This document shows positions 5,182 to 59,740 of a stretch of 64,000 nt of DNA, piece by piece. Source of the DNA: a bacterium (GTDB lineage: Bacteria; Patescibacteriota; Minisyncoccia; JACQLN01); NCBI GenBank assembly GCA_030697795.1, contig JAUYOV010000004.1, forward strand, positions 11,831 to 75,830. Direction: 5' to 3'. The stretch's first letter is position 1; every line of letters starts with the position of its first letter. The position numbers and the translations under genes were made by a program. The notes beneath the pieces were generated by a model. The model searched no databases, was not told where the DNA came from, and saw only the letters and a program-made list of their open reading frames with translations.

Positions 5182-5191
5182 ATATTAATAA

Positions 5192-5273
5192 ATATATCAT
5201 CCCGAGTAGCATCATGGAGAAGACTATTTATATAAATAAAGAGGCTCCATGTCGTCTGCGAGGGGTGATATAT
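5192..5273. repeat. Copy A of the ~80-nt intergenic hairpin element, a candidate REP-doublet (REPIN-like; core CCGAGCAGCATTATGGAGAAGACT...AGGCTCCATATCGTCTGCGAGG)
   Basis: One of 4 copies sharing a ~60-nt core (about 80-90% identity by eye), with terminal inverted arms (ATATATCATCCC/GGGTGATATAT) that covary between copies. Confidence 0.8.
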
Positions 5274-5289
5274 TTACGCCAATAAACAC

Positions 5290-6282
5290 TTAAATTTTTA
5301 TACTTCTCAAATACTCGGCCACTTCGTCGGGATCAGTATTTATAACTTCACCACCCGTACCTAATTCAAAACCGCCCCAAACACCTACTCTGGGGTTTAT
5401 TTCTAAATGCCAATGGTAAAAACTGTAATCGTGTTCGGCATCGGTGGGCGGAGTATGTATAAAAAAGTTATACGAGGGATTATTTAAACCATGAAAAATT
5501 TTGGCTAAAGAAACTTTTAAAGCTTCGGCCAAATCTTTTAATTCTAAAGTATTTGCTTCTTCAAAAAAAACTTGATGTTTTTTAGGAAAAATTCTTATTT
5601 CGTAAGAAAATCTTGGCACGTAAGGCACTAGAACCACAAAATTATCGTTTTCGAATATTACTCTTTTCTGTTCTTTAAGCTCCCATTCTATAATATCGCA
5701 ATGGACACAGCGTTTTCTTTCTATTTTATATATAGCCGAACCCGATAAACTTCGGCTAATATCCGATGGTATAAAAGGTATGGCCAATATTTGAGAATGC
5801 GGGTGCGACACCGAGGCGCCAGCCTCACGGCCGTGATTATGTATTATTAAAATATAATTAGCGCATTCTTTATTTTTAAGATTATTGTATCTATCGTGAT
5901 AAGCCGAAACAATTTGCCAAACATTTTCGTTATCTAATTCCGCTATACTTTTTTTATGATCTTTAAAAATTACAACTTCGTGATACCCCGCCGAATCTTT
6001 TATTAAATATGGGCCATATCTTTTTTCTGAATTACAAGCCTCGCCTTTTATTATGGGGAACTTATTATTAACAACTTTTATGCCAGAAGAGTAATTTTTT
6101 ATAATTTCGTTGCCGTGAGCTTTGGGGTCTTCGAAGGGACAAAGATTAATTAGGGTTTCTTCGTGGAAATTTTTGTTCAACCCAAAAAAATCCGGCCTTT
6201 TGGATCTGCCAGAAGAAATTATTATCCAATCGCGACTGACCGGATCTTGGCGAAGTTCTGAAGTTTCTTTTTTATTCTCCAT
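5290..6282 (-). CDS. galT: Galactose-1-phosphate uridylyltransferase (HIT-like GalT family)
   Basis: CPF...HPHSQ(I) His-Pro-His active-site motif; ~330 aa. Confidence 0.7.
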   Translation of the reverse strand: MENKKETSELRQDPVSRDWIIISSGRSKRPDFFGLNKNFHEETLINLCPFEDPKAHGNEIIKNYSSGIKVVNNKFPIIKGEACNSEKRYGPYLIKDSAGYHEVVIFKDHKKSIAELDNENVWQIVSAYHDRYNNLKNKECANYILIIHNHGREAGASVSHPHSQILAIPFIPSDISRSLSGSAIYKIERKRCVHCDIIEWELKEQKRVIFENDNFVVLVPYVPRFSYEIRIFPKKHQVFFEEANTLELKDLAEALKVSLAKIFHGLNNPSYNFFIHTPPTDAEHDYSFYHWHLEINPRVGVWGGFELGTGGEVINTDPDEVAEYLRSIKI

Positions 6283-8267: not shown

Positions 8268-8354
8268 CAATCGCATCATTCCGAGCAGCATTATGGAGAA
8301 GACTAAATTATAAATAAAGAGGCTCCATATCGTCTGCGAGGAGTGATGCGATTG
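8268..8354. repeat. Copy B of the ~80-nt hairpin element
   Basis: Same core; terminal arms CAATCGCATCA/TGATGCGATTG. Confidence 0.8.
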
Positions 8355-9691: not shown

Positions 9692-9713
9692 GGTAATGGT
9701 AAAAAATTTAAAA

Positions 9714-9793
9714 AACATTGTCCCGAGCAGCATTATGGAGAAGACTATTTTATAAAATAAAGAGGCTCTATATCGTCTGCGAGGGATAATGTT
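9714..9793. repeat. Copy C of the ~80-nt hairpin element; fills the whole adk-map spacer
   Basis: Same core; arms AACATTGTCCC/GGGATAATGTT. Confidence 0.8.
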
Positions 9794-9795
9794 TT

Positions 9796-10362
9796 TTATA
9801 ACCCCAGTACCTGTTTAATTCGCAAATGAATTTCCTCTATACTACCCATACCATCAACCTTAATCAACCTATTCGATTTTTCGTAATATTCTATAGCTGG
9901 CATTGCATCGGTATTAAACCATTCCAAACGATGACGAATTGATTCTTCGGTATCATCTTTGCGTCCGCGTTTTAAAAGCCTTGTTACTGCTTCGTCTTCT
10001 GTAATATCTATTAAAACAACTTTAATATCTACTCTACCCAACCAACTTAAAACTTCGTCTATTTCTTTGGCTTCATCTAAACGACGAGGTGAGCCGTCAA
10101 AAATTATATTTTCTCCATCTTTTAATTTATAAACTAGTTCCTTCTGCCATAAAAAAGCGGCAATCCACTCTGGGGGCAGACCACCAGAATCCACAACTTC
10201 TTTAACTTTTTTACCAGCTAAAGTCTCTTCTTTTTCTAATAAACGAAAAAGATCGCCGGCGTAAATATAAAGACAGGGTTCTATAAGCTTTTTTAAAAGC
10301 TTAACCTGCGTGCCCTTACCCGACCCCGATCTGCCTAAAACGATTATGGTTTTACTAGACAT
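9796..10362 (-). CDS. adk: Adenylate kinase
   Basis: GRSGSGKGTQ P-loop and DGSPRRLDEA; start taken at MSSKT. Confidence 0.8.
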   Translation of the reverse strand: MSSKTIIVLGRSGSGKGTQVKLLKKLIEPCLYIYAGDLFRLLEKEETLAGKKVKEVVDSGGLPPEWIAAFLWQKELVYKLKDGENIIFDGSPRRLDEAKEIDEVLSWLGRVDIKVVLIDITEDEAVTRLLKRGRKDDTEESIRHRLEWFNTDAMPAIEYYEKSNRLIKVDGMGSIEEIHLRIKQVLGL

Positions 10363-11884: not shown

Positions 11885-14806
11885 ATGGTAACCAATATGG
11901 ATCTCTCTAGATTTAAAAAAGAACTAGGCGCCTTAAACCCCGAACAACGCCAAGCGGTGGAGACAATTGAGGGACCGGTTATGGTTATAGCCGGCCCTGG
12001 TACGGGAAAAACACAAATTTTAACTTTGCGGATTGCTAATATTTTAAACAAAACCGACACCAACCCCGAAAATATTCTAGCTTTAACTTTTACTGAATCT
12101 GCTACCGCCAACATGAGGCGTCGTCTAACCAGTTTGATCGGTACGCCTAGCTACTACATTAATATCCATACTTTTCACGGTTTTTGTAACAAGCTTATCC
12201 AAGATTACCCAGAAAACTTTCCAAAAATAATTGGCTCCACCAATGCTAATCAAGTAGATCAAATACAAATTATTAGAAAGATTATAGACGAGCATGGTTT
12301 TAAGAATTTGAAGCCATTCGGTAGTAAGTATTATTACGTTACCGAAATACTAAAAAACATCCGCCAATTAAAAAGCGAAGGTATTGGTCCTGTTGAATTT
12401 AAAAATATAACTTCTAAAATAAATCTCGAAGACCCCAAAGAGGAAAAAAATACCGAACGCTTAAAAGAACTATCTTTGGTATATAAAAAATATCAAGCCG
12501 AACTTTCAAAAAGAAAGCTATACGATTTTGAAGATATGATTTTGGAAACCATAAATTCGCTCAAAAAAGATAAGGATTTTTTGTTAGACCTTCAAGAAAA
12601 ATACCAATACATATTAGTAGACGAACACCAAGACACCAACGGCGCCCAAAATAAAGCCTTAGAGCTTTTAACCAATTATGATGAGAACCCAAACTTGTTT
12701 GTGGTAGGCGACGAAAAACAAGCTATTTACCGTTTTCAAGGCGCTAGTTTAGAAAACTTTTTATATTTTAAAGAAAAGTTTAAAAAAGCGAAATTAGTAG
12801 AATTAAAACAAAATTATCGCTCTACCCAAAAAATATTGGATGCCTCACATAGCTTAATAAAAAAAAATATAGCTGTCTTGGCTTTAACCAAACTCCAAGC
12901 CCAAAAAGGCAGGACCGACCTTCCTAGAAGGTCGGTCCTGCAGGTGGCAACCTGCGCTACACCCGAAATAGAATACCTTTTTATAACTCAAAAAATAAAA
13001 GAACTTCTAAGGCAAAAGGTTGAAGCTAGCAAAATTGCAATCTTATATAGAGAAAATAAAGATGCTTTTTCTGTTTCCGACTTTTTAACTAAACAGAATA
13101 TAAAACACGGCATAGAATCCGATGAAAACATATTAGAAGATATGGATATTAAAAAACTAAATATTCTTTTTGATGCCATAGAAAACTTTCCTTCTTTAGA
13201 ATTTTTAGCTCCAGCCTTACACCTAGATTTTTTAAATATAAACCCCTTAGAAGCTTATAAAGCCATAGAATCAAAAGATTTTAATAGTTCGCCTAATGTG
13301 TCTAACCTATTTAAAAAAATAGGTGAGCTTAAAAAATATAGCCGTAATAATGTTTTTGTTAAATTTTTTGAAAAAGTAATAAACGATACTGGTTTTTTAA
13401 AAAACATACTGGCCGAGGCCAATTACAACGAAAGATTAAATAAACTTCATGCTTTGTTTAGCGAAGTTAAAAAAATAAATTTTGCTAACCACAATTTTTC
13501 TTTACCAAACTATCTAAATCATTTAGAAATTTTAAGGGAACATAACTTGCCTATTCAAATTAAAACAAAAACATTACCCGCAAATGTTCGCTTAATGACG
13601 GCTCACCGAGCCAAAGGCCTAGAATTTGATTATGTATTTATTATAGGCGCCTACAATGGCCATTGGGGCAATAAAAGAAATATGAGCCATATAAAACTCC
13701 CCATAAAAACAAGCTTTGATGCTGATAAAATAGAAAAAAACGAGGATGAGCGCAGATTGTTTTATATGGCCATCACTCGAGCCAAAAAAGAAGCTTACAT
13801 AAGTTATTCCACTTCTTCGTTTGACGGCAAAGAGCAAGTGCCTAGCCAATTTATAAACGAAATCGATCCCGCCTTAAAAGAAGAACATATAATTGAGCAA
13901 AATCCAGAAATTAAAAAAATTGTACTAGCTTCAATTTCTAATAACAAAGCACCAAAAACAAATGAAAAAACTTTTGTGGTAGATATATTTTTGCGCCGTG
14001 GCTTCTCGCCTACCTCGCTAAATAATTATTTAACCTGCCCCTGGAATTTTTTCTATAACAATCTGCTTCGCATACCCAAAGCCCAAGCCAACTATTTAAT
14101 TTATGGCAACGCCAAGCACAAGGCCTTACAGCTTTTTTTTGATGAGAAAGAAAAAAATAAAAAAATAGGCTCTAAATTTATAATAGAAAAATTTATAGAA
14201 GATTTACGAAATTACCCTTTAATACCGAAGGATCATGAAACCTTGCTTAAAAAAGGAATAGAAAGTTTAACCGCCTATTATAATTTTTATAAAGATTCTT
14301 GGCCCGAAAAAACAGTAAACGAATACAACATTAAAGGAGTTAGTTTTAACTTAGGCGCGCAAGAAATAAAACTAAGCGGAAAACTAGATCGCTTAGAACT
14401 AAAACCAAATAGCCCAGCTGTTACAGTAGTAGATTACAAAACTGGAGCCGCCAAAAGCCGAAACGAAATTTTAGGCAACACCAAAAACGCCGATGGTAAT
14501 TATTTTAGACAACTTGTTTTCTACAAATTGCTTTTAGATATGTTACCCAACAAAAAATATAATATGCTGGCTGGTGCAATTGACTTCACTGAACCCCTCG
14601 ACTCCGCTCGACAAGGCTCGGGGCAAGCCGCTCGGGGCAAGCCTGCCTTTAAAAGAGAGGTTTTTGAAATTTCTAACGAAGAAACAAAAGCACTTAAAGA
14701 AACTATCACTAAATGCGCAAATGAAATTTTAAACTTAAAATTTTGGAACAAACTCTGCGGTGAAAAAGATTGTGAATATTGCGAGTTAAGAAAGTTAGTT
14801 TCTTAA
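11885..14806 (+). CDS. UvrD/PcrA-family SF1 helicase fused to a C-terminal PD-(D/E)xK nuclease domain with a Cas4/AddB-like Cys cluster
   Basis: AGPGTGKT Walker A, DEHQDTN motif II, DRLELK...VVDYKTG nuclease core, C...CGEKDCEYC. Contains two in-frame GC-rich inserts. Confidence 0.8.
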   Translation: MVTNMDLSRFKKELGALNPEQRQAVETIEGPVMVIAGPGTGKTQILTLRIANILNKTDTNPENILALTFTESATANMRRRLTSLIGTPSYYINIHTFHGFCNKLIQDYPENFPKIIGSTNANQVDQIQIIRKIIDEHGFKNLKPFGSKYYYVTEILKNIRQLKSEGIGPVEFKNITSKINLEDPKEEKNTERLKELSLVYKKYQAELSKRKLYDFEDMILETINSLKKDKDFLLDLQEKYQYILVDEHQDTNGAQNKALELLTNYDENPNLFVVGDEKQAIYRFQGASLENFLYFKEKFKKAKLVELKQNYRSTQKILDASHSLIKKNIAVLALTKLQAQKGRTDLPRRSVLQVATCATPEIEYLFITQKIKELLRQKVEASKIAILYRENKDAFSVSDFLTKQNIKHGIESDENILEDMDIKKLNILFDAIENFPSLEFLAPALHLDFLNINPLEAYKAIESKDFNSSPNVSNLFKKIGELKKYSRNNVFVKFFEKVINDTGFLKNILAEANYNERLNKLHALFSEVKKINFANHNFSLPNYLNHLEILREHNLPIQIKTKTLPANVRLMTAHRAKGLEFDYVFIIGAYNGHWGNKRNMSHIKLPIKTSFDADKIEKNEDERRLFYMAITRAKKEAYISYSTSSFDGKEQVPSQFINEIDPALKEEHIIEQNPEIKKIVLASISNNKAPKTNEKTFVVDIFLRRGFSPTSLNNYLTCPWNFFYNNLLRIPKAQANYLIYGNAKHKALQLFFDEKEKNKKIGSKFIIEKFIEDLRNYPLIPKDHETLLKKGIESLTAYYNFYKDSWPEKTVNEYNIKGVSFNLGAQEIKLSGKLDRLELKPNSPAVTVVDYKTGAAKSRNEILGNTKNADGNYFRQLVFYKLLLDMLPNKKYNMLAGAIDFTEPLDSARQGSGQAARGKPAFKREVFEISNEETKALKETITKCANEILNLKFWNKLCGEKDCEYCELRKLVS

Positions 14807-16197: not shown

Positions 16198-17949
16198 CTA
16201 CAAATTTAATAATTTTTGAGTAAGTTCACTAAACTCTATAAGCAAAAGATTCAAAGCCTGGCTGTCGCCATCGGCTTCAGCTTTTTTTATATCGGCTTGA
16301 ATAACTTTAAGCTTGGATTGCAAACTTTGTTTTTTTAAACTAACAAGAGTTCTGGCAAATTCGTCTGCCGGATCTATATTAAAATCGGCTATTAGCTCGC
16401 TCATAGCAATTAAGCGAGAATCAGCCGAGTCCGGAATTTTAGCGTCGTTATTTGCCAGCAGACTTTGGGCCAGCGAAAATAAATTTGGCTGGGAGAATAA
16501 TTCTAGCTCCTCATTGCCAAGGCGGCCTTTTAAGTCTGGATATCTTAGTATTAAAGATAACAGATACTCTTCTTGACGTAAACCCGGCAAATCTTTGGGA
16601 GAAATAATAGCTTTAGATAAAGCAATATTTGGAACCTGCGGTTTTTGATTAAAATCCTGAATAACTAACTGTCTTAACTCTAAATTTAAAACGTCTCTAG
16701 CTATACCGGCCTTGTGAGAAAGTTCTTCCAACCAATAATCCCTATCTAATGGCGAAATAATACTTTTTATAAATGGCAAAACATTGGCTAAAACATTTTT
16801 CTTAGATTCCAAAGTTCCAGAAAAATCTTTTAAAGATCTATTTATAATATGCGCTAAATACGGCACCGGTTTTAAAACCGATTCACTCCAAAGTTTTGGA
16901 TTTTCCTTTACAGTATCGGCCGTGTCTTTGCCCGAAGGAATAGAAACTACCGAAACATTTAAACCCGAAGCTATCGCCATATTAACGCCCTTTTTTAAAG
17001 CACTATCCCCCGCTTCATCGGCATCAAACGCCAACATTAATTTTTCGGTGTATCTTTTTATTATGCGCGCGTGGCTTCCGCCAAAAGCCGTACCACAAGT
17101 AGCCACCACATTTTTTACACCAGCCTGATGCGACATAAGCACATCCATTGTGCCTTCGAGAAGTATACAACCTTCGTTTCTAATATACGTTCTAGATTTA
17201 TCTAAACCATAAAGCGCTTGCGATTTGTCGTATAAAATGGTGCTTGGAGTATTTACATATTTTCCGGCATCTTCGTGCACAGTCTTACCTTTTACTTTTT
17301 CGAAAATTCTGCCCGTAAAGCCAATCACCTGCCCTTGACTATCGGCTATAGGAAACATTATGCGGTGTCTAAACCTATCGTGATATTCACGCGTGGTTTC
17401 GCTTTTTACAGCCAGCCCCGATTTATCTATTTCATCGTTGGTATAACCTTCGGAACTTAAAAAATTATGTAACGATTGCCAAGTATCAGGCGCCCAACCA
17501 ATTCTAAAGTTAGTTAAAGATTCTTTAGTTACTCCTCTTTCTTTTAAATATTCTACTGCCCCTAAACCTGGGCGAGATAATAACTGGCGTTCAAAAAACT
17601 TTGTAGCAAGTTCGCAAACTTCGTAAATTCTTTTTCGTTGCGAGCCTAACTGCACATCTTGATCGCGTTTTATTAATTTAACTCCGGCTTTCTCGGCCAG
17701 CATTTTTAACACATCGTAAAATTCCAAACCCTCCATTTTTTGCACAAAAGAAAAAATGTCTCCTCCTTCACCGCAACCAAAACAATGCCAAATCTGTCGA
17801 GCGGGCGTTACCACAAACGAAGGTGTCTTTTCGTGATGAAAAGGACACGAGCCCTTCCAGTTAGCACCAGCTTTTTGCAACTTTAAATAGCCCTGAATAA
17901 CTTCGGCAATATCTAAACGACTTTTTATGTCTTCAACTTGAGAGGTCAT
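16198..17949 (-). CDS. dnaG: DNA primase; true start MTSQVED rather than the ORF-track start
   Basis: CPFHHEKTPSF zinc-binding motif, TOPRIM region. Confidence 0.9.
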   Translation of the reverse strand: MTSQVEDIKSRLDIAEVIQGYLKLQKAGANWKGSCPFHHEKTPSFVVTPARQIWHCFGCGEGGDIFSFVQKMEGLEFYDVLKMLAEKAGVKLIKRDQDVQLGSQRKRIYEVCELATKFFERQLLSRPGLGAVEYLKERGVTKESLTNFRIGWAPDTWQSLHNFLSSEGYTNDEIDKSGLAVKSETTREYHDRFRHRIMFPIADSQGQVIGFTGRIFEKVKGKTVHEDAGKYVNTPSTILYDKSQALYGLDKSRTYIRNEGCILLEGTMDVLMSHQAGVKNVVATCGTAFGGSHARIIKRYTEKLMLAFDADEAGDSALKKGVNMAIASGLNVSVVSIPSGKDTADTVKENPKLWSESVLKPVPYLAHIINRSLKDFSGTLESKKNVLANVLPFIKSIISPLDRDYWLEELSHKAGIARDVLNLELRQLVIQDFNQKPQVPNIALSKAIISPKDLPGLRQEEYLLSLILRYPDLKGRLGNEELELFSQPNLFSLAQSLLANNDAKIPDSADSRLIAMSELIADFNIDPADEFARTLVSLKKQSLQSKLKVIQADIKKAEADGDSQALNLLLIEFSELTQKLLNL

Positions 17950-18119
17950 GCTGGAATTATGTATCAGAAATCGGGAATTAGGAAGTCTAATTTGACATAA
18001 ATAGCTAATCAAGCACTCTCTTATGTTAAACATCCAGTGTTTAACATTGAGGTACATGATAATCCCTTTCAACTCGCAGACTCTGTTCAGGGTATTTATT
18101 CAACACTTAGTGTTGAATA

Positions 18120-22633: not shown

Positions 22634-22791
22634 ACTTACTAAATTTCGAAATTCGAATATCGAAATCCGAAACCCTACTTCGCTAAAGCTTCGTAGGGCA
22701 CAGCAATATCACTTATTTGGATTTGCTTGCCCGCCGTAGTTTTAACAGAGGCGGGTTTCGAATTTCTGATTTCGTGCTTCGAATTTTATTT

Positions 22792-23653: not shown

Positions 23654-26044
23654 TTAGGAAAAATTTTCTTTGTTTTCCTCTTCTGTGTGTATATCTATAG
23701 CTTCTGGTGGAACTTCTGATTTTACTAAAACCTCTCTAGGTTTAGCCCCTTCACCGGGACCAATCATGCCTTGAGCTTCTAGAATATCGAGTAATCTTGC
23801 GGCGCGGGCGTAGCCGACTCTTAATCGTCTCTGGAGTAAAGAAGCCGAAGCTTTACCAGCCTGCATAATAGCTTCTTTGGCTTGGAGTAAAAGTTCATCT
23901 TCGTCACTAGAATCCATTTTATCAAAACTTACACCGGTAAGTATTGGTCTATGATCTGAGACAGCTTTTTCCAAACCAAGCGCTTCTTCTGGATTAGCAT
24001 CAGGCGCGTCTTCGGGTAGATTAGATCTTATAAACGAAACAACTTTTTTAACTTCTTTTTCCGAAACAAAAGTGCCTTGAATACGTTTGGGCTTGGGCGA
24101 ATCAGAAGTTACAAAAAGCATATCGCCCATGCCTAAAAGTTTTTCGGCGCCAGCCGAATCTATAATTGTCCGTGAATCTATTTGCGAAGCCACCGCAAAA
24201 GCTATGCGCGTGGTAATGTTAGCTTTAATTAAACCCGTAATAACTTCTACCGAGGGCCGCTGTGTGGCTAAAACCAAATGTATGCCCACCGCCCGCGCCA
24301 TCTGCGCTAAACGCACTACTGTAGCTTCTATTTCACGCCCGTAAGTAGACATTAAGTCGGCCAGTTCATCTATAATGATAACCAAATAAGGCATTAAATC
24401 GTCGCCTTTTTTAGCATCAACTTGAGAATTAAAACCGCCAATATCTCTAACTTTTTTTTCGGAAAGCAGGCTATATCTTCTTTCCATTTCTGAAGTCGCC
24501 CATTTTAAAGCCGACACCGCTTTTTTAGGCTCTACTATAACTGGGGTTAAAAGATGCGGAATACCATTATACAAAGTTAATTCAACTCTTTTAGGATCAA
24601 TCATTATAAAGCGTAAAATTTCTGGCGAATGTTGATACAGCAAATTAACAATTAACGAATTTATGGCTACGCTTTTACCCGAACCCGTGGCGCCCGCAAT
24701 AAGCAGATGAGGCATTCTGGTTAAAGCCGACCACATCGACCGGCCAGAAACATCTTTGCCTAAACCAATATTTAAAAAGTTTTTATGCTCCGAAGCCTCA
24801 AAACCCTGAAGCAAAGCTTTTAAACGCACCACCATAGATTTTTGATTGGGTATTTCTATGCCCACTAAAGATTTTCCCGGAATCGGCGCTTCTATTCTTA
24901 AAGATTCTCCGCCTAGGGCTAAAGATAAATCTTTTTGCAAAGCTAATATGCTAGCCAGTTTGACTCCAGTGGCTGGTTTTAAAGTAAACTGGGTTACCGC
25001 AGGGCCAATATTAACTTCCGACATTTCTACCGGAATATTAAAATTCTCTAAAGTTTTCTGAATAATTATGGCATTGCCCTTAATGTCGCCCGTCACCGGC
25101 ATAGAGCCTTCGTCTTCTAATAAATCTAATGGTGGAAATTTATAGTTAACGGAAAGTGGCAACACACTAAATCCGCTCGCCATATTTTCTTGTTTCTTTT
25201 TTGAAACCTCATCTGACTTGGCCATTACTGACGTACCTTGAGGAGAATTTATAGTGACAGTGTCTTCAGCCGGTTTGGGCGCTTCAACTTTTTTAGCGGT
25301 TTGAGGTAGTTTAGCTTTGCTGGCTAACGTTGCAATTTTAGTTACTAAACCTTTTTCTAAAACTAATTTTTTTTCTGGAATCATTTCGCCATTTTCGTCC
25401 GCCTTAAAAACAAATTTTTCTTTTATTTGATCTTTCAAAGGCAAACGAAAAACAATCAACATAGCCGAAAAGAAAAACGCCACAAAAAATATTAAAGAAC
25501 CCCAAAAACCAAACATCTGCCTAAACGGCCAGCCAAAATAATAACCCATTTTACCGCCAGCCTGATTTTGCGAAAATATTTCCATCAAGCCCAAAAAACT
25601 TAAAATTAGAACACTGCCCCCGATTATAGTGGAACCTAATATTTTTTTCTTGTCGGAAGTTAAAATAAAAAACGACATTAAAAACATCGTTAAAGGCACA
25701 AAGAAACTACCGGAACCAAACATATAATCGGCACCGGCTGTAATGGCTTCGGAAAAAGATCCCGACAAGCCAAAGAAAGCTAAGGTAGTTACCAAAGCCA
25801 CAGCCAGCAAAAGAACGCCCACTACGCTTCTTTTAACGCTTGATTCTAAATGGAGCCAAGAAGTTGTTCTTTTTGGCTTTTTTACTTGAGATTTTTTAAG
25901 ATTTTTAATATCCTCCTTTTCTTTTTCAGCAGGCATTAGGTTTAATCTATTACTAGAAAATAATAACATACAAAAAAGCCAAATAACAACAACGTTTTTC
26001 AGGAAGGGCGGTCCTTCCGATAGATTTCCTGCTATTTTTGGCAA
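23654..26044 (-). CDS. ftsK: DNA translocase FtsK/SpoIIIE; true start downstream of the ORF-track start, whose first codons overlap a REP
   Basis: GATGSGKS Walker A, C-terminal gamma wHTH domain, N-terminal TM segments. Confidence 0.9.
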   Translation of the reverse strand: MPKIAGNLSEGPPFLKNVVVIWLFCMLLFSSNRLNLMPAEKEKEDIKNLKKSQVKKPKRTTSWLHLESSVKRSVVGVLLLAVALVTTLAFFGLSGSFSEAITAGADYMFGSGSFFVPLTMFLMSFFILTSDKKKILGSTIIGGSVLILSFLGLMEIFSQNQAGGKMGYYFGWPFRQMFGFWGSLIFFVAFFFSAMLIVFRLPLKDQIKEKFVFKADENGEMIPEKKLVLEKGLVTKIATLASKAKLPQTAKKVEAPKPAEDTVTINSPQGTSVMAKSDEVSKKKQENMASGFSVLPLSVNYKFPPLDLLEDEGSMPVTGDIKGNAIIIQKTLENFNIPVEMSEVNIGPAVTQFTLKPATGVKLASILALQKDLSLALGGESLRIEAPIPGKSLVGIEIPNQKSMVVRLKALLQGFEASEHKNFLNIGLGKDVSGRSMWSALTRMPHLLIAGATGSGKSVAINSLIVNLLYQHSPEILRFIMIDPKRVELTLYNGIPHLLTPVIVEPKKAVSALKWATSEMERRYSLLSEKKVRDIGGFNSQVDAKKGDDLMPYLVIIIDELADLMSTYGREIEATVVRLAQMARAVGIHLVLATQRPSVEVITGLIKANITTRIAFAVASQIDSRTIIDSAGAEKLLGMGDMLFVTSDSPKPKRIQGTFVSEKEVKKVVSFIRSNLPEDAPDANPEEALGLEKAVSDHRPILTGVSFDKMDSSDEDELLLQAKEAIMQAGKASASLLQRRLRVGYARAARLLDILEAQGMIGPGEGAKPREVLVKSEVPPEAIDIHTEEENKENFS
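26000..26032. repeat. REP1 palindrome CAGGAAGGGCGGTCCTTCCGATAGATTTCCTGC at the 3' end of RAYT-1
   Basis: Further copies at 26526-26542 (inside RAYT-1), 26735-26750, 59691-59722; related sequence inside the helicase CDS at 12909-12941. Confidence 0.8.
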
Positions 26045-26706
26045 TCTTTATAGGAAAGCCAATCAAGAATAAAATCATCAAAGTCCTTTACACCGTCGAA
26101 ATAATCTGGAAAAGCTTTTTTGTTGATAATTTTTTGCTCTAATCTTTGAACACCTACATAATCAAGATAACTGGAATAATTATAACCATTTAAAAAATTT
26201 TGGGCCGCTAATTTATTTTTAATACCAGTTTCTTTCCAGTTAGGTTCAATCAACTTAATAGAATTTAAGTGTGTATAGGCAAAAATATATTTCAGATATT
26301 CATCTCTTTCAATATGTTTTGCTTGAAACCTTCCCTGAAATAAAGAACCGCTACGATCATGTCTTTTATTGAAATACATGGAATAACCGGTGGATACTTT
26401 TCCCATAAATTTAGAGAGTCCACCTTCTACAGTTTCTCTTGCAAGTAAATGGAAATGATTCGGCATTAATACATGTGCGCCTAAAGCAGTAATATCATCG
26501 CCAGTATTTACATCAAAAATATCTGGGAAGGACCGCCCTTCCAAAAGAAGCTCATTGATATCTACACGGTCATTGTTATTACAAAGATAAAGGAGCATCA
26601 AAAAACGTCTATATTCGCCTGTAGATTCAAATATAGTCCTCTTATCCACACCTCGATTGTAGATATGATAATATTCCCCTACAGAGAAAGTGAATTTACG
26701 TTGCAT
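26032..26706 (-). CDS. REP-associated tyrosine transposase (RAYT; IS200-like HuH Y1 transposase), copy 1
   Basis: GEYYHIYNRGV, HuH motif LMPNHFHLL, catalytic-Tyr helix region; flanked by REP1 palindromes. Confidence 0.7.
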   Translation of the reverse strand: MQRKFTFSVGEYYHIYNRGVDKRTIFESTGEYRRFLMLLYLCNNNDRVDINELLLEGRSFPDIFDVNTGDDITALGAHVLMPNHFHLLARETVEGGLSKFMGKVSTGYSMYFNKRHDRSGSLFQGRFQAKHIERDEYLKYIFAYTHLNSIKLIEPNWKETGIKNKLAAQNFLNGYNYSSYLDYVGVQRLEQKIINKKAFPDYFDGVKDFDDFILDWLSYKDCQK

Positions 26707-26766
26707 TCAATAATTATAATTCCTTAGGGTATTTATCGGAAGGGCGGTCCTTTTTAGGCCTAGGGT

Positions 26767-26795
26767 TTGACACAGGATTGGCTATGGTTTAGACT
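26767..26795 (+). promoter_or_regulatory. Putative sigma-70 promoter (TTGACA-N17-TAGACT) for the tRNA cluster, followed by a 15-nt tandem direct repeat at 26806-26835
   Basis: Hexamer match only; weak -10. Confidence 0.3.
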
Positions 26796-26840
26796 GATTT
26801 TTACTGTTCTTCATGATAAAGTTCTTCATGATAAATAAGT

Positions 26841-26918
26841 GTCGGGGGTAGCTCAATTGGTCAGAGCGGCTGACTGTGGATCAGACTGTGTCGGTTCAAA
26901 CCCGGCTCCCCGGCACCA
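26841..26918 (+). tRNA. tRNA-His (anticodon GTG) with G-1:C73
   Basis: Manual cloverleaf: G-1, acceptor TCGGGGG/TCCCCGG, D-arm GCTC/GAGC, anticodon loop CTGTGGA, T-arm GTCGG-TTCAAAC-CCGGC. Confidence 0.7.
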
Positions 26919-26927
26919 AAATTTAAT

Positions 26928-27013
26928 GGGCGTGCGGCTGAAAGGACTCCTCTGGACAGTTGGAGAAATCCGATTGAAGCTGGTGTCAGGAAATCCAGTC
27001 ACGCCCACCAATC
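26928..27013 (+). other. tRNA-like element (perfect 7-bp acceptor-type stem GGGCGTG/CACGCCC, terminal ACCA) with no canonical cloverleaf
   Basis: 86 nt between the two tRNAs. Possible degenerate class-II tRNA or tRNA-derived structured RNA; identity unresolved. Confidence 0.3.
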
Positions 27014-27017
27014 GTGT

Positions 27018-27123
27018 TCCGCGGTAACTCAGAGTGCTGACTTAAGGGCCGCAAGCCCCGGCCGGTTAGAGTGCCTAGCTGATAACTAGGAGGTCGTTGG
27101 TTCGAATCCAACCCGCGGAGCCA
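27018..27123 (+). tRNA. tRNA-Ile (anticodon GAT) carrying a ~31-nt hairpin insertion in the D-loop
   Basis: Acceptor TCCGCGG/CCGCGGA, D-stem ACTC/GAGT, anticodon arm CCTAG-CTGATAA-CTAGG, T-arm GTTGG-TTCGAAT-CCAAC, G73-CCA. Insert 27033-27063 AGTGCTGACTTAAGGGCCGCAAGCCCCGGCC. Confidence 0.5.
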
Positions 27124-27127
27124 AAAA

Positions 27128-27162
27128 CAAATCCCGCTTAGGCAAAAACGCCAAGCGGGATT
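27128..27162 (+). terminator. Rho-independent terminator after the tRNA cluster
   Basis: AAATCCCGCTTAGGC...GCCAAGCGGGATTT hairpin plus T-run. Confidence 0.6.
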
Positions 27163-27621
27163 TTATATTTTTTCTAACCATTTTTCTTTACCACAAACTA
27201 GGCAGATGACTCCGTGCAAAGCCTCTGATTGATTTTCTACTTCCCAAATCACAGATCTTGATACTGGAAGATTTATCTTTGCCGTATAACCTAAAAGTAG
27301 GGTCTGATTCTGTCTAACAAAATCAACTATACTCATAACACCAAGCTTAATCGCTTCAAAAAAGAATCCAGAAATAAAATCGGTGCGTGCGCCATAATTA
27401 ACTTCAGATTCCCAAACAAAGACATTCTCTTTTAGTTGAAAAAAAATAAGAGGTAATGAGTCTTTAAAAATAACTGCTCCTGGCGGAGCATCTTCTGGAG
27501 TATTTGCTATAAAAGTAAAAACCCTATTAACTATATCCATCTCCGGAAAATTAATAATGATCACGCCAGTATATTCTCTAGATATTTTTGTAACAGTAGA
27601 AATGTCCAGCAATAGAGACAT
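27163..27621 (-). CDS. Hypothetical protein
   Basis: ORF only. Confidence 0.4.
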   Translation of the reverse strand: MSLLLDISTVTKISREYTGVIIINFPEMDIVNRVFTFIANTPEDAPPGAVIFKDSLPLIFFQLKENVFVWESEVNYGARTDFISGFFFEAIKLGVMSIVDFVRQNQTLLLGYTAKINLPVSRSVIWEVENQSEALHGVICLVCGKEKWLEKI

Positions 27622-30745: not shown

Positions 30746-30841
30746 AACACAGAATTTCTAATTTCCAATATCTAAATCCTAAACAATTTCTAAATTCTAA
30801 TTTTCCAGAATATATTTGGAGCATTGTGATTTGAGATTTGT

Positions 30842-32128
30842 TTAGAGTTTAGTGCTTAGGATTTGGAGTTCGATTAGAAATTTTTCTAACTCTTTTAGTT
30901 TAACCATCTCCACTTTCTCGCTGGCGCGATTTTTGACCTCCACACTTTCTTGCGCCAAAGTTTTATCGCTAACTATTATCCGATATGGAATACCAATTAA
31001 ATCAGCATCCGACAACTTTACACCGGCCGATTCTTCGCGATCATCCCATAAGACGTCAAACGTCTTTAAAGATTGATACAGCTTCTCGGCTTCTTTCTTG
31101 GTATCGCCCAATGAAACTAAATGAATTAAAAACGGAGCCACGCTCTTTGGCCACTTCATTCCAGCCTCATCGTTAAAAACTTCGGCCAGCACTCCAACTA
31201 AACGGCTCATACCTATACCATAACTGCCTAAGTATGGCGGTTTATCTTTACCATCGGAATCTTTAAAATTAATCCCCATTTTTTCGGAATAAACTGTGCC
31301 AAATCTAAATATATTTCCAATTTCAACGGAACTAGCTTCTTCAACTTGTCCACCGCATTTTGGACAAGGATCCCCAATCTTGTGAGTATAAATTTCTTTG
31401 TTTTGCGCCCAATCACATTCGCCAGCCGGCGAATTGCAGAAATAAATATTATCTTCACCTACTGGGCTTACTAACTGAAATTCATGTGTATGACCCGAAG
31501 TAAACACACCGCCCGAAGCTTCAACCACCTTAACATCTTTTAATCCAACCCTGTTAAACACTCGTAAATAAGCATCTTTAACTTCCCAGTAAAATTTGTC
31601 TAGATCTTCCCCTGTGGTATGCAAACTATATAAATCTTTCATCATAAACTCCCGCCCGCGCAATAGGCCTGACTTAGCCCGAGCCTCGTTTCTAAACTTG
31701 GTAGAAAAGTGATAAAGCTTAATCGGTAAATTTTTATAGCTTAAAGAATTTTTCCTAACTACATCTAAAAATATTTCCTCGTGTGTAAAAGAAAGTCCAT
31801 ATTCTTTTTCGTCTACCGATTTAAACTGATACATTATCTGTTTAACATTTGGATCTGCCCAACGGCCGGTTTCATTCCAAACATCGCGAGGATGAAGTAA
31901 TGGCATTAAAACTTCGGCACTGCCAATAGCATTCATTTCTTCACGCACGATTTGTTCTATTTTTTGATAAACCCGCCAACCTAAAGGCAAAAAGGTGTAT
32001 GAACCCGCCATAAGCTTGTCTACAAAACCCCCACGCAAAAGCAACCTAGCATTAGTAGCTGTTTCGTCCTTTGGATCATCCCTGCGAGTGTTTATAAACG
32101 ATTGAGAGTAACGCATAAGAGTTATCAC
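30842..32128 (-). CDS. proS: Prolyl-tRNA synthetase (short form lacking the INS editing domain)
   Basis: MRYSQSF..LLRGG..YTFLPLGWRV..IVREEMN..G..EVLMP, closely paralleling E. coli ProRS motifs. Confidence 0.85.
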   Translation of the reverse strand: MITLMRYSQSFINTRRDDPKDETATNARLLLRGGFVDKLMAGSYTFLPLGWRVYQKIEQIVREEMNAIGSAEVLMPLLHPRDVWNETGRWADPNVKQIMYQFKSVDEKEYGLSFTHEEIFLDVVRKNSLSYKNLPIKLYHFSTKFRNEARAKSGLLRGREFMMKDLYSLHTTGEDLDKFYWEVKDAYLRVFNRVGLKDVKVVEASGGVFTSGHTHEFQLVSPVGEDNIYFCNSPAGECDWAQNKEIYTHKIGDPCPKCGGQVEEASSVEIGNIFRFGTVYSEKMGINFKDSDGKDKPPYLGSYGIGMSRLVGVLAEVFNDEAGMKWPKSVAPFLIHLVSLGDTKKEAEKLYQSLKTFDVLWDDREESAGVKLSDADLIGIPYRIIVSDKTLAQESVEVKNRASEKVEMVKLKELEKFLIELQILSTKL

Positions 32129-32748: not shown

Positions 32749-32786
32749 GATCCCGCACCTTTTTAATTAAAAAGGTGCGGAATTTT
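32749..32786. terminator. Second copy of the CCCGCACCTTTTT/AAAAAGGTGCGG terminator hairpin
   Basis: Same stem as 20577-20617. Confidence 0.55.
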
Positions 32787-32789
32787 ATT

Positions 32790-32823
32790 TAGCATGAGCC
32801 ATGCGATCGCATGACTCATGCTA
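32790..32823. repeat. GCGATCGC-core palindrome TAGCATGAGCCATGCGATCGCATGACTCATGCTA (REP3 family)
   Basis: Family members at 50245-50280, 50896-50929, 52902-52931. Confidence 0.7.
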
Positions 32824-32862: not shown

Positions 32863-33942
32863 TCAGAAAAATTTAACTATATCTTTCCAAGTTACAAAAA
32901 ACATTAGCGCGAGCAACAAAAGAAACCCTCCTATATTTACAGTATTTTCAAATTTTTGGCTTAAGGGCGAACCCTTAATTTTTTCTACTATTAAAAACAC
33001 TAATCTGCCGCCATCCAGCGCTGGAAAAGGCATAATATTTAGTATGGCCAAATTAACAGATAGTATGGCTACTAAATTTAATAAATAAACCATGCCCATG
33101 TTGTAAGCTTCGCCCGTCAAAGAAGCTATGCCAATGGGGCCAGTAATTTCACCCATAACTCTGCCTTCAATAAGTAAGGTTTTAAAAAACAAAAACAAAG
33201 CCGAGCCAATCACCCAAACCATAAAACCTAAATCTTTTAAACCACTCCATAAAAATAAATACCAGGGCGATTTAACTAAACCTGTTTTGGCCAGAGCCAC
33301 GCCCAAAGCGCCTTCACTTTGTGGAGGATTAACACGCGGGGTTATTTTAATATCTACATTTTCTTTGCCTCTTAATAAAACTAAATTTATTTCTTGACCA
33401 GCTTCGCCTTCTACAAAAGATTTAAATTCCGAAATTTCGGAAAATGTTTTTAAGGTGCCATCTGACAATTTTATGCCACTAATAGCATCGCCCATTTTAA
33501 TGTCTGCGTTTGACGCGGGAGAATTTTCAGCCAGAGCCGTAATTTGAATTTTAATATTTGTGGCCTTGGCACTATTGGTTTCGTCTAAAACCATCGGCCG
33601 GCCCATTAAATTTCCAAAACTTAAAAGCACATAGGCCAAAACTAAATTCATAAAAACACCAGCGCAAACTATCTTAACTCTTTTGGATATTTTAAGCGAA
33701 GAAAAACTACCGGCTTCGTTTCTGTGTTCGCCCGATTCACCAAATATTTTTACAAAACCACCAAACGGAATTAAATTAAAAGAAAAAACCGTCTCGCCTC
33801 TTTTTATAGAAAAAACCTTTGGCGGAAAGCCAAAGCCAAATTCTTCCACCTTGGCACCGGCCTTTTTGGCGGTTATGTAATGACCGTATTCGTGAACCAA
33901 AACCAAAGCAGATAATACGATAAAAAATACTAGGATAGTCAT
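32863..33942 (-). CDS. rseP: RseP-like site-2 zinc metalloprotease (M50) with PDZ
   Basis: HEYGHY HExxH motif, LDGG motif. Confidence 0.8.
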   Translation of the reverse strand: MTILVFFIVLSALVLVHEYGHYITAKKAGAKVEEFGFGFPPKVFSIKRGETVFSFNLIPFGGFVKIFGESGEHRNEAGSFSSLKISKRVKIVCAGVFMNLVLAYVLLSFGNLMGRPMVLDETNSAKATNIKIQITALAENSPASNADIKMGDAISGIKLSDGTLKTFSEISEFKSFVEGEAGQEINLVLLRGKENVDIKITPRVNPPQSEGALGVALAKTGLVKSPWYLFLWSGLKDLGFMVWVIGSALFLFFKTLLIEGRVMGEITGPIGIASLTGEAYNMGMVYLLNLVAILSVNLAILNIMPFPALDGGRLVFLIVEKIKGSPLSQKFENTVNIGGFLLLLALMFFVTWKDIVKFF

Positions 33943-34099
33943 AAATGTCTAATATCCAATTACTAATATCGAATCAATGACTAATTTATAAATGCCTAAT
34001 TTTGAATTTAGTTATTAGACATTGGGATTTGATTAGAAATTATCCCTCGATTGGGCTCGGGATCCTGAGCCTGTCGAAGGAGGTATTAGAAATTGGAAA

Positions 34100-34691: not shown

Positions 34692-34720
34692 ACATGTTCA
34701 ACATTCAATGTTGAACATGT
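34692..34720. repeat. REP2 palindrome ACATGTTCAACATTCAATGTTGAACATGT, left flank of RAYT-2
   Basis: Perfect palindrome; copies at 34901-34925 (inside the CDS) and 35390-35418. Confidence 0.85.
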
Positions 34721-34734
34721 TATAATTTTGATAT

Positions 34735-35391
34735 ATGAGAAAAACAATTTTGGCCGAAGGCGAATATTATCATATCTATAATCGTGGTGTAGAGAAAAGA
34801 AACATATTTTTAAACGATAACGATAAGTGGCGATTTATGACCCTCTTACTAATATTTCAAGGCAAGGGTCATATTGATAATATGCAACGTATTGTTAAAC
34901 TTGTTCAACATTCAATGTTGAACAAAGAACCATTTGACGACATCCTTTTGAATAAAAAGGTTGAACTGATATGTTTCTGTCTGATGCCAAATCATTATCA
35001 CCTTATATTAAAAGAAATTAAAAATGGAGGAATTTCTAGTTTTGGGCAAAGATTAGGTAACAGTTATACAAAATATTTCAACACTAAATATAAACGCACT
35101 GGACACTTATTTGGTGGAAGATTTCAAACGGTTCACATAACTCAAAATACATATCTCAAACATTTATCTTCTTATATACACAATAATCTAACAGAACTAA
35201 ATAATTGGAAAAAATTGGAAAACGAATATTTTTGGTCAAGTCTGCCAGATTATGTAAATAAAAACCGATGGGATAAGTTTCTAAACCCGGAAATAATTCT
35301 AAACCAGTTTAGGGGTAAAAATGATTATCTAAATTACATCAAAAATAATCGAAACAAAATTAAAAAACTAGATGGTTACTATATAGATTAA
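34735..35391 (+). CDS. REP-associated tyrosine transposase (RAYT), copy 2
   Basis: GEYYHIYNRGV, LMPNHYHLIL HuH motif; paralog of 26032..26706. Confidence 0.7.
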   Translation: MRKTILAEGEYYHIYNRGVEKRNIFLNDNDKWRFMTLLLIFQGKGHIDNMQRIVKLVQHSMLNKEPFDDILLNKKVELICFCLMPNHYHLILKEIKNGGISSFGQRLGNSYTKYFNTKYKRTGHLFGGRFQTVHITQNTYLKHLSSYIHNNLTELNNWKKLENEYFWSSLPDYVNKNRWDKFLNPEIILNQFRGKNDYLNYIKNNRNKIKKLDGYYID

Positions 35392-35418
35392 TTGTTCAAC
35401 ATTCAATGTTGAACAATT
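35390..35418. repeat. REP2 palindrome, right flank of RAYT-2
   Basis: AATTGTTCAACATTCAATGTTGAACAATT. Confidence 0.85.
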
Positions 35419-37969: not shown

Positions 37970-38058
37970 GCAGAAATATTATCTTGAGCAGCATTGTGGA
38001 GAAGACTATTTATATAATAAAGAGGCTCCACATCGTCTGCGAGAGATAATGTTTCTGC
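37970..38058. repeat. Copy D of the ~80-nt hairpin element
   Basis: Same core; arms GCAGAAATATTATCT/AGATAATGTTTCTGC. Confidence 0.8.
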
Positions 38059-39074: not shown

Positions 39075-39269
39075 AATAGTATAAATTACGAAATTCTAAT
39101 ATCTAAATTCGAAACAATATCTAAATATTAAATTATAATTTGGAATTTTGAACATTGTGATTTGTTTAGAATTTAGTGCTTAGTATTTATAATTTTCTGC
39201 CGACTTTATACTAACATCCTAAAACCATTTTTCAAACTAATCAAAGTATGCTAATTTAAAGTCGTTAAA

Positions 39270-50144: not shown

Positions 50145-50244
50145 TGTGGCTTTATTGTAACGGAAAAAGGCTAATAAAATCAAAGTTGCTCAATCGCCCT
50201 ACCATCTAATATTTCGTATATTTAACTTCTTTAATAAAATCCAC

Positions 50245-50280
50245 TTAGCACGAGTCATGCGATAGCAGTTCTCATGCTAA
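50245..50280. repeat. REP3-family palindrome (degenerate) overlapping the 3' end of PaaX-like paralog 2
   Basis: TTAGCACGAGTCATGCGATAGCAGTTCTCATGCTAA. Confidence 0.6.
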
Positions 50281-50844
50281 ATCAAAAATCTTGAGCAAGT
50301 GTAATTCATTATCTAAATCCGTAGCCGTAATAATTCTAACGTAGGAACGAATACTAAAATATTCAATCAAGAAATTGATTTCATCTTGGCAAGGATAAGG
50401 CTGTATCAAAACACTTTTTTGATATTCATAAAAACCTAATCTTTTTAGAGTTTCTCTTAAAGCTTCGCGGGCAGGTTTATGTTTTTCTGGTATATCAAAT
50501 AAAACTATTCGCCATTTTTTATCCCAGACTTTAGGTTTTTTGATTCCCATATTGTCTATATTAAAGGTAATGGCTTTATCCTTGCCTTTGTCTGTTAAAA
50601 TCATAGTTAAAGAACCGTCGGGGTTTTCATGTTCGCGGATAAGTTTGGATTTATACAAGCTGGCTATAGCTCTTTCTAAAGACTGTTTGTTAATTTTTTT
50701 CCATTCTTCAGCCGTGCTTTCTAATACTCGAAAATATTGTTTAGAGGTTCTGGCAAAGCTAAGACCTATTCCAGTAAATAAAAGTAATAATGCTTTTTGT
50801 TGGTTGGGACCTAAGCGTTGAATTTTCTTTTTCAAATTAATCAT
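50272..50844 (-). CDS. PaaX-like winged-helix regulator with Cas2-fold C-terminal domain (paralog 2)
   Basis: WRIVLFDIPEKHKPAREALRETLKRLGFYEYQKSVLIQP. Confidence 0.55.
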   Translation of the reverse strand: MINLKKKIQRLGPNQQKALLLLFTGIGLSFARTSKQYFRVLESTAEEWKKINKQSLERAIASLYKSKLIREHENPDGSLTMILTDKGKDKAITFNIDNMGIKKPKVWDKKWRIVLFDIPEKHKPAREALRETLKRLGFYEYQKSVLIQPYPCQDEINFLIEYFSIRSYVRIITATDLDNELHLLKIFDLA

Positions 50845-50895: not shown

Positions 50896-50929
50896 TAGCA
50901 CGAGAACTGCGATCGCAGTTCTCGTGCTA
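50896..50929. promoter_or_regulatory. Perfect 34-nt palindrome TAGCACGAGAACTGCGATCGCAGTTCTCGTGCTA in the promoter region of PaaX-like paralog 2
   Basis: REP3 family; candidate operator. Confidence 0.5.
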
Positions 50930-51039
50930 AGTTGAGGGGAAAAAAAGAAACAAAAAACAGAACAGATCCGATCTAGATTAAATTACTTATCTTATCAGCT
51001 AGCAAAAAGCAAAATAAAGCAAAATAAAAAAGGAGACTG

Positions 51040-51072
51040 CAGTTTTTGCAGTCTCCCTTTTGCTCGGGCGAA
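51040..51072. terminator. Bidirectional terminator hairpin GGAGACTGCAGTTTTTGCAGTCTCC
   Basis: Stem flanked by A-run and T-run. Confidence 0.5.
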
Positions 51073-51155
51073 GGTTGAACCTTCGGGTTTAAAATCAGAG
51101 ATAAAGCAATAAAAAAAGCGCGGAACCCTTTTGTAGGCTCCGCGCGATAAGTCTC

Positions 51156-59690: not shown

Positions 59691-59722
59691 CAGGAAGGGC
59701 GGTCCTTCCGATAAATTTCCTA
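59691..59722. repeat. Distant copy of REP1 (CAGGAAGGGCGGTCCTTCCGATAAATTTCCTAG)
   Basis: About 33 kb from RAYT-1. Confidence 0.75.
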
Positions 59723-59740
59723 GGTTTTTAGCAAATAAAA

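Follow-up and report, generated by a model that had tools for sequence, protein, structure and literature searches.

What is a palindrome doing inside the reading frame of the gene that it also brackets? The question is raised by a 64,000-nt stretch of a Patescibacteria contig (JAUYOV010000004.1, positions 11,831 to 75,830; hereafter the window). Here a gene for a Y1 HUH protein resembling the REP-associated tyrosine transposases (RAYTs; REP, repetitive extragenic palindromic sequence) has copies of one short palindrome ahead of its start codon, in frame within its open reading frame (ORF) and beside its stop codon. We refer to this gene as RAYT-1. A paralogue in the same window, RAYT-2, repeats the layout with an unrelated palindrome. 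The window thus holds two RAYT-like Y1 HUH genes, each with a private palindrome at three fixed places: overlapping the promoter (the -35 region or the spacer), in frame in a surface turn (residues 55-62), and a few nucleotides past the stop codon.

Two RAYT-like genes, each with a private palindrome at three places

The RAYT-1 palindrome is a 17-mer, GGAAGGGCGGTCCTTCC, with a 6-bp stem and a 5-nt loop, and is one G·T pair from a perfect palindrome. Exact copies lie at 26002-26018 (plus strand), at 26526-26542 (minus strand, which is the gene strand, inside the ORF) and at 59693-59709 (plus strand), and copies with two mismatches are found at 26738-26754 (plus strand) and 12908-12924 (minus strand). 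With up to three mismatches allowed, the window contains 8 strand-hits versus 0.07 expected from shuffled sequences. The repeat unit is longer than the 17-mer and consists of the hairpin plus a tail, GATArATTTCCT, part of which is also present at the internal copy. The match between 26000-26045 and 59691-59736 extends over 46 nt (83%) and takes in the last RAYT-1 codons. The hairpin-plus-tail units that flank the gene, each ~30 nt long, are inverted and face inward on both sides. The features at RAYT-1 and the copies away from it are as follows.

26032..26706, minus strand: RAYT-1, a 224-aa Y1 HUH (RAYT-like) gene containing HVLMPNHFHLL
26000..26031, plus strand: downstream repeat unit, with the hairpin GGAAGGGCGGTCCTTCC at 26002-26018 and then, up to the stop codon, the tail GATAGATTTCCTG
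26517..26542, minus strand: internal in-frame copy, the exact 17-mer at 26526-26542 followed by tail-like CAGATATTT
26713..26718, minus strand: -10-like box TATAAT, 6 nt 5' of the RAYT-1 ATG
26725..26754, minus strand: upstream unit, a degenerate hairpin AAGGACCGCCCTTCC (gene strand) followed by the tail GATAAATACCCTA
59691..59736, plus strand: dispersed intergenic copy of the RAYT-1 3' end unit, comprising the hairpin, the tail and a stretch homologous to the final codons
12909..12942, no strand assigned: REPIN-like variant doublet (a REPIN being two REP units in inverted orientation), a perfect 34-nt palindrome with each half two positions off the 17-mer

The first-pass annotation, made from the letters of the window, had placed palindromes at the stop codon, near the start codon and within the ORF of RAYT-1. 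All three sites are occupied, the upstream one by a copy that matches at 15 of 17 positions (ending ...CCTTtt), lies 32 nt 5' of the ATG and forms no stable hairpin. Its reports of a further copy 33 kb away and of a half-site doublet in a helicase gene hold as well: the first is the exact 17-mer at 59693-59709, and the second is the 34-nt palindrome, which lies in frame in a UvrD-like helicase ORF (11885..14806, plus strand), encodes …QKGRTDLPRRSVLQ… and folds with -19.1 kcal/mol. Its translation of the internal copy as WEGPPFQ was taken from the wrong strand; the gene strand encodes LEGRSFP.

The upstream unit overlaps, and sits just 5' of, the -35 region. The TATAAT box and its spacing are identical in three related loci (L002, L004 and L187; homologous loci are cited by number), and a box at -12/-13 occurs in many loci. 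In the three-site layout the upstream site immediately precedes a TATAAT placed 6-8 nt from the ATG. At RAYT-1, a distance of 6 nt between the box and the ATG implies a leaderless or very short-leader mRNA. A consensus promoter scan did not call this box, because the -35 element is weak, so that the case for a RAYT-1 promoter is built on the box being conserved in relatives. The downstream DNA hairpin has a folding energy of -5.6 kcal/mol, and the RAYT-1 hairpins other than the upstream one are modest overall (-5.2 to -5.7 kcal/mol, z -1.6 to -2.5).

RAYT-2 provides a second case. Its palindrome, GTTCAACATTCAATGTTGAAC, is unrelated to that of RAYT-1 and occurs exactly three times in the 64 kb (0 expected), always at RAYT-2.

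34735..35391, plus strand: RAYT-2, a 218-aa paralogous Y1 HUH gene, 36% identical to RAYT-1
34692..34720, plus strand: upstream palindrome ACATGTTCAACATTCAATGTTGAACATGT, with the exact 21-mer at 34696-34716, spanning the -35 hexamer and spacer; -12.2 kcal/mol
34901..34925, plus strand: internal palindrome, with the exact 21-mer at 34903-34923, in frame and encoding VQHSMLN; -9.4 kcal/mol
35390..35418, plus strand: downstream palindrome, with the exact 21-mer at 35394-35414, 2 nt past the stop codon; -11.5 kcal/mol

The sequence TGTTATAAT directly follows the upstream palindrome, and the -10 element is at 34721-34726, giving the promoter TCAACA-17-TGtTATAAT (10/12, with TG). The RAYT-2 hairpins are strong (-9.4 to -12.2 kcal/mol, z -4.4 to -6.9), and in the alignment the internal copies of RAYT-1 and RAYT-2 fall on one and the same turn.

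That turn is where the protein and the palindrome meet. On the gene strand the internal RAYT-1 copy reads CTT TTG GAA GGG CGG TCC TTC CCA (L-L-E-G-R-S-F-P), and LEGRSFP forms the turn between helices 50-55 and 60-65 of the AlphaFold model. Its codons GGG (0.09), CGG (0.09), TCC (0.10) and TTC (0.11) are rare in the window, and with the codon usage of the window the probability of GAA GGG CGG TCC TTC given EGRSF is 7e-5. Close homologues conserve G57 and F60 at 90% or more. The core xAA GGN NNN NCC TTx accounts for the peptide [E/Q/K]-G-x-[S/T/P/A]-[F/L], and in internal copies of the AAGG-N5-CCTT type the fourth codon ends in CC in every case.

Change at the three sites across the gene family

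The closest relatives carry the same layout at conserved positions. In L004 (82% identical) and L002 (70%), the RAYT gene lies in the same MreC-DsbA-DUF3105-RAYT-FtsK context as in the window, which indicates vertical inheritance, and the palindrome of the window is present upstream, in frame and downstream, with doublets in L004. The proteins, at 70-82% identity to RAYT-1, have diverged, and the exact palindrome DNA sequence at the sites is unchanged. The upstream arrangement of RAYT-1 is also seen in L002 and, as a doublet, in L004, and the position of the downstream unit is kept in L002, L004, L186 and L187.

Judged from these sequences, the palindrome differs among lineages and the three sites change in concert. 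L187 (73%) has GGAAGGACGGTCCTTCC at all three sites, and its internal difference from the window is a synonymous GGG>GGA change. In L186 (61%) all three sites read CGAAGG…CCTTCG, in which the outer stem has changed in a compensatory manner. Among relatives of RAYT-2, L180 has GTCAAACATTCAATGTTTGAC at all three sites, L179 has GTTCAACACTTAGTGTTGAAC in both flanks and an internal copy that differs at one position, and L181 has a related but diverging internal palindrome. Other co-varying cases are L100-L176, L182 and L007.

A wider sample comprised 80 metagenomic loci with homologues of 43-60% identity. Of the 64 loci for which both flanks are available, nearly all have one palindrome of 17-30 nt on the upstream and the downstream side alike, mostly of the form xAGG-N5-CCTx with a lineage-specific sequence. 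Its centre lies mostly 20 to 50 nt before the ATG on the upstream side and from ~10 nt before to ~35 nt after the stop codon on the downstream side. Each gene was then scanned against its own flanks for matches of at least 15 nt, with mismatched locus pairs as the comparison. Such a match was present inside the ORF at 24 of 73 loci versus 4 of 584 non-own pairs, against a background in which the longest gene-flank match is 8-13 nt. The majority of internal copies map to RAYT-1 residues 55-62, and they share one alignment region in two clades of only ~35% identity. The remaining positions include residues 91-93, in the loop past the HUH strand (three loci), a site close to the C terminus (two loci), and a 25-nt copy with one mismatch at +23 aa after the HUH motif (L145). 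The distance from start codon to HUH motif is 75-81 aa both with and without an internal copy. We therefore rejected an origin of the copy by insertion and take it to be overprinted on existing coding sequence. The recurrence and co-evolution of the three-site layout is, at the level of sequence, a family trait and no one-off oddity.

With this distribution in hand, we consider it close to negligible that the palindromes are operators or terminators of some other DNA-binding protein, or chance matches, and have nothing to do with the Y1 protein. Near-perfect palindromes that overlap promoters are typical operators of dimeric repressors, which is the point in favour of another protein. Such a protein would have to account for two paralogues in one genome that each have a private palindrome, and for a specificity that tracks the RAYT lineage in dozens of loci of unrelated context; chance is excluded by the shuffles.

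Function at the RNA level accords with several properties of the copies and is, in our assessment, improbable as the main explanation. The post-stop hairpin would be a 3' stabiliser or a modulator of termination, and the internal hairpin, or its pairing with the 3' copy, a cleavage or attenuation signal. In most loci the downstream copy lies 2-30 nt past the stop codon, a position for which PMC3733652 proposes REPs as RNA elements. At RAYT-1 the coding strand of the internal copy has the G·T (G·U) form. This copy is reverse-complementary to the 3' copy, with which it could form a 17-bp duplex, and a scan flags it as terminator-like. However, the upstream copy lies 5' of the -10 box and so is probably untranscribed, yet it co-varies with the others. 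Direct orientation of all copies, with no U-tract behind them, is seen at RAYT-2 and at many further loci, and an RNA role leaves unexplained why specificity tracks the RAYT paralogue. An Rfam scan of 25500-27300 returned tRNAs alone and no known RNA element. The second of these tRNAs (27049-27119, plus strand; 30.1 bits, gathering score 29), for which ARAGORN makes no call, lies ~130 nt downstream of tRNA-His (26841-26918).

The main rival, which we regard as rather unlikely, holds that the internal copy is a neutral passenger: an ancestral REP in a permissive loop of the RAYT, homogenised by gene conversion or RAYT-mediated replacement and without function. The encoded peptide sits in a turn of the AlphaFold model, and the copies at other loops (+14 to +23 aa past the HUH motif) or at the C terminus are what loop tolerance predicts. 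The internal copy is also missing or decaying in many family members, and in-frame intragenic REPs are known elsewhere, notably in repair helicases (PMC3733652), with one in the helicase of the window. Mere tolerance fits less well with an aligned position that is the same in two clades of ~35% identity, at a length equal to that of members without a copy, and with perfect or near-perfect copies in lineages whose palindromes are wholly different, rare codons being kept. A copy in one third of the sampled genes also appears far above the level in other genes, for which no control gene set was counted.

The RAYT-1 protein, known systems and dispersed repeats

The HUH motif of RAYT-1 is H84-F85-H86 (MPNHFHLL), and the putative catalytic tyrosine is Y144, within AYTHLN. 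Y1_Tnp (PF01797; 25.8 bits, cutoff 23) is the sole Pfam domain, with no helix-turn-helix (HTH) domain detected. The NCBIfam model REP_Tyr_transpos (NF047646) scores 37.6 bits, below its cutoff of 80, and covers residues 74-151 alone. There are more than 6,900 homologues of 220-230 aa, and the named sources are all Patescibacteria or Parcubacteria. An AlphaFold (AF2) model built with 41 homologues as input (pLDDT 88) begins with a β-strand (12-19), a helix (29-42) and two short helices (50-55 and 60-65), continues with two β-strands, the second of which (84-91) carries the HUH motif, a long helix and the tyrosine helix (135-152), and ends in a helical C-terminal extension of ~70 aa. The top PDB match of this model in Foldseek is 4ER8, the Escherichia coli TnpA-REP with a REP hairpin (E 1.4e-5), followed by the IS200, ISDra2 and IS608 transposases; 2XM3 and 2VJV are also among the fold matches. 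The fold search was needed for this placement because a sequence profile of RAYT-1 gave no match among PDB sequences.

RAYT-1 is thus a RAYT-like Y1 HUH enzyme of a distinct, Patescibacteria-specific clade. The Pfam score and the match to 4ER8 bear out the first-pass identification of an HuH Y1 protein at 26032..26706. The profile check proposed alongside it gave a divided answer, since Y1_Tnp passes its cutoff and the NCBIfam RAYT model does not. The description of the locus as canonical RAYT/REP is likewise right in that a Y1 HUH gene is flanked by its cognate palindrome, and too strong in that the protein scores below the RAYT cutoff, belongs to a distinct clade and has a low-copy palindrome. 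Calling the internal copy unusual is apt beside the E. coli rayT but says too little, given that the copy is conserved and co-varies across the family and that RAYT-2 has it again with a different palindrome.

REPtrons, TIRtrons and intragenic REPs have been described in published work (PMC3733652 for intragenic REPs). The likeness to a REPtron, as represented by E. coli rayT/yafM and 4ER8, lies in a Y1 HUH gene with HUH motif and tyrosine helix, in 4ER8 being the top structural match, in a palindrome that brackets the gene and recurs at other genomic places, in some cases as inverted REPIN-like doublets, in a separate palindrome family for each paralogue, and in apparent vertical inheritance among close relatives. 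Both flanks carry one palindromic repeat at RAYT-1 and at RAYT-2, and the 64 kb hold no recent RAYT duplicates, the two paralogues being 36% identical. Unlike the protein of a typical REPtron, RAYT-1 scores too low for the NCBIfam RAYT model. It also has two additions, an insert of ~25 aa that separates helix 1 from the HUH strands and the ~70-aa helical C-terminal extension. The palindromes here are near-perfect, of very low copy number, and without a GTAG head in the copies inspected, for which no systematic search was made. The upstream copy overlaps the promoter, and the ORF itself contains a cognate copy in frame. In the E. coli rayT control the flanks share 37 nt and no gene-to-flank match exceeds 9 nt, so that an internal copy is absent.

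TIRtrons and their TIRYT proteins (TIR, terminal inverted repeat; De Nocera 2013; Quentin 2018 subclass 2.1) are similar in combining a RAYT homologue that has a C-terminal extension with inverted, low-copy flanking units, and the RAYT-1 units also point inward. Published TIRYT examples have C-terminal HTH (DnaA-like) domains, whereas Pfam finds none in RAYT-1. The flanks here are short hairpins common to dispersed copies rather than long TIRs, and TIRYTs are not described as having an internal copy.

An autonomous IS200/IS605-type element of 0.75 kb, with the flanking hairpins as its ends and the internal copy as an alternative end for a mini-element, is highly improbable. The unit of ~755 bp is close to the size of IS200, the far copy at 59691-59736 repeats 46 nt of the 3' end with coding bases included, and the genomic context varies among homologues below ~60% identity. 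The FtsK, DUF3105 and DsbA neighbours were not found beside the 43-60% homologues and accompany only relatives of at least 70% identity. The HUH Y1 fold, with the TnpA proteins of IS200, ISDra2 and IS608 among the structural matches, and the hairpins beside both gene ends are further resemblances. Left-end hairpins of IS200 also control expression, by acting as a terminator and by sequestering the ribosome-binding site. However, within the 64 kb RAYT-1 is not multi-copy: multiple near-identical copies with same-strand end hairpins were not found, no identical second copy is present, and the paralogues are merely 36% identical. Synteny is kept at 70-82% identity. The protein, at 224 aa, is ~70 aa longer than these transposases, has RAYT-like features and matches 4ER8 first. 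The internal copy lies in coding sequence and not in a 5' untranslated region, and the flanking units are inverted as judged by their tails, whereas the ends of IS608 are direct on one strand. Hairpin orientation across the family is not fixed on one strand. No constant rule emerged for how the three copies are oriented, direct and inverted configurations both being found, and a strict IS608-like same-strand model was dropped for this reason. Viral contigs yielded just two weak relatives of RAYT-1 (29-32% identity), and the family is therefore not phage-borne.

Intragenic REPs and the Rickettsia palindromic elements share with the present case a palindromic repeat that is translated as a protein loop, of which 12909-12942 is a direct example. 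Those are insertions that add residues to unrelated genes, whereas here the gene that contains the copy is that of the presumed cognate enzyme, the position is conserved, the length is unchanged, and the copy co-varies with the flanks. PMC3733652 lists UvrD/Rep helicases as recurrent targets of intragenic REPs, and the doublet in the helicase of the window fits these published cases in repair helicase genes. Full-text searches, together with term searches in the RAYT/REP papers PMC6006769, PMC5581495, PMC3733652 and PMC3337134, found neither an internal REP reported for a RAYT gene nor a report of Patescibacteria RAYTs. On the best reading of the sequences, the self-embedded, conserved cognate site would set this REPtron-type arrangement apart from the known RAYT/REP layout.

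Away from its gene, the RAYT-1 palindrome is represented in the 64 kb by one intergenic copy and the variant helicase doublet, and the RAYT-2 palindrome by none. Related metagenome-assembled genomes (MAGs) have 3-5 exact 17-mer copies each, on separate contigs and often as REPIN-like doublets. The enrichment anticipated by the first-pass annotation is clear within the window (8 strand-hits versus 0.07). An exact census across 185,579 genomes, a collection that does not include the source genome, found 93 stretches with the 17-mer versus ~70 expected by chance according to our own arithmetic. The totals are near chance and hence uninformative, and only the clustering within Patescibacteria MAGs is meaningful.

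In one Yonathbacteria contig (L007, MHUT01000004, ~5580-5650), a doublet of the palindrome of its own RAYT (AAAGGTCCGGCCTTTTTAAAAAGGCCGGACCTTTTT) adjoins a copy of the 17-mer of the window. The two palindrome families are clustered as in a bacterial interspersed mosaic element (BIME, a mosaic REP cluster), which points to at least two RAYT specificities in that genome. In a Planctomycetia MAG (JAUNAI01; L013, L019, L025, L044 and L072), GGAAGGGCGGTCCTTCC occurs on five contigs in a conserved unit of ~100 nt, …ttccacNtgaaaattcag[17-mer]ggtagtcatttc…gcgaaatgacgg…. The 8-kb JAUNAI01 loci contain no RAYT homologue, and this unit could be due to convergence, bin contamination or a related system. 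Two further palindromes of the general type of the family occur in the window, CGAAGGTTGAACCTTCG at 51069-51085 (intergenic, beside a terminator-like hairpin) and ATCAGGCCTGGCCTGAT at 3210-3226, and a 77% variant of the RAYT-2 palindrome (GTTAAACATCCAGTGTTTAAC) lies at 18021-18046 in the ORF 16198..18072. These three may be relics of other or former RAYT specificities.

Three other repeat families were observed in the window. A conserved repeat of up to 86 nt with an internal inverted repeat (consensus …GAGCAGCATTATGGAGAAGACTA…AAAGAGGCTCCATATCGTCTGCGAGGG…), unrelated to the RAYT palindromes, has copies at 5190-5275, 8283-8353, 9711-9796, 37986-38056 and 52597-52619, the last being a 23-nt end fragment; it may represent a small RNA or some other dispersed element. 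A palindromic repeat, TAGCAYGAG…GCGATCGC…CTCRTGCTA, is found at 32783-32823, 50240-50286 and 50896-50935 and is unrelated to both RAYT palindromes. AT-rich degenerate repeats of the TAATATCTAAATTCGAAAC… type are intergenic, direct and inverted, at 22636-22682, 30747-30864, 33938-34042, 39078-39188 and 62236-62377, and one of them lies just 5' of frr, the gene beside RAYT-2.

A possible role of the palindromes in cis

Our favoured explanation, to which we give an even chance as a whole, is that each locus is a REPtron whose cognate sites act in cis on its own RAYT gene. The encoded HUH protein would bind or cleave the palindromes as its cognate hairpins, and these may serve cis autoregulation or self-targeting. 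RAYT protein bound at the upstream site would occlude the promoter and repress its own gene. Transcription or replication would expose the internal site as a hairpin in single-stranded DNA, where it could be a second docking site, a roadblock or a nicking site. Together, the two cis sites would make expression of a potentially genotoxic nuclease self-limiting. The post-stop copy would be the other end of the unit and the portion of it that was copied to another place (59691-59736). Selection for recognition by one protein, perhaps with help from conversion between copies, would keep the sites identical.

Several observations weigh against this REPtron reading. The upstream copy of RAYT-1 is degenerate; its hairpin alone reaches -2.4 kcal/mol, and shuffled sequences do equally well. 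About 60% of the sampled family members have no internal copy, which is therefore dispensable, and the copy is decaying in L182 and L181. With so few dispersed copies, the case for a "REP family" is weak. Whether the internal copy points the same way as the flanks depends on the locus, direct and inverted arrangements both being found; this counts against a mechanism that is strictly strand-specific, as in IS608, and recognition seems insensitive to loop polarity. Co-variation could also be produced by concerted evolution that is free of function.

For the internal site itself we propose, tentatively and with distinctly less than even confidence, that the ORF embeds the recognition hairpin of its own enzyme as a self-target under joint protein and DNA selection. 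The embedded hairpin could be a cis switch, which would limit expression through self-binding or nicking coupled to transcription or replication. Alternatively it could be a protected "master copy", which would lock enzyme and repeat together through evolution. If this proposal is true, RAYT-1 and its relatives would be the first transposase-derived genes shown to carry their substrate inside the ORF as a functional element.

The family bears on the role of RAYTs in vivo and on how they recognise their REPs. Dozens of lineages in which the presumed target changes in step at three sites amount to unusually direct comparative evidence of specific co-evolution between a RAYT and its palindrome, and they offer a ready table of protein variants paired with palindromes from which rules of recognition may be derived. 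The promoter-overlapping and in-frame copies suggest that a domesticated nuclease regulates itself. The family extends the reach of RAYT/REP-type systems into Patescibacteria, a group for which the papers searched describe none, and the peptide [E/Q/K]-G-x-[S/T/P/A]-[F/L] indicates that constraint at the level of DNA can dictate a protein motif.

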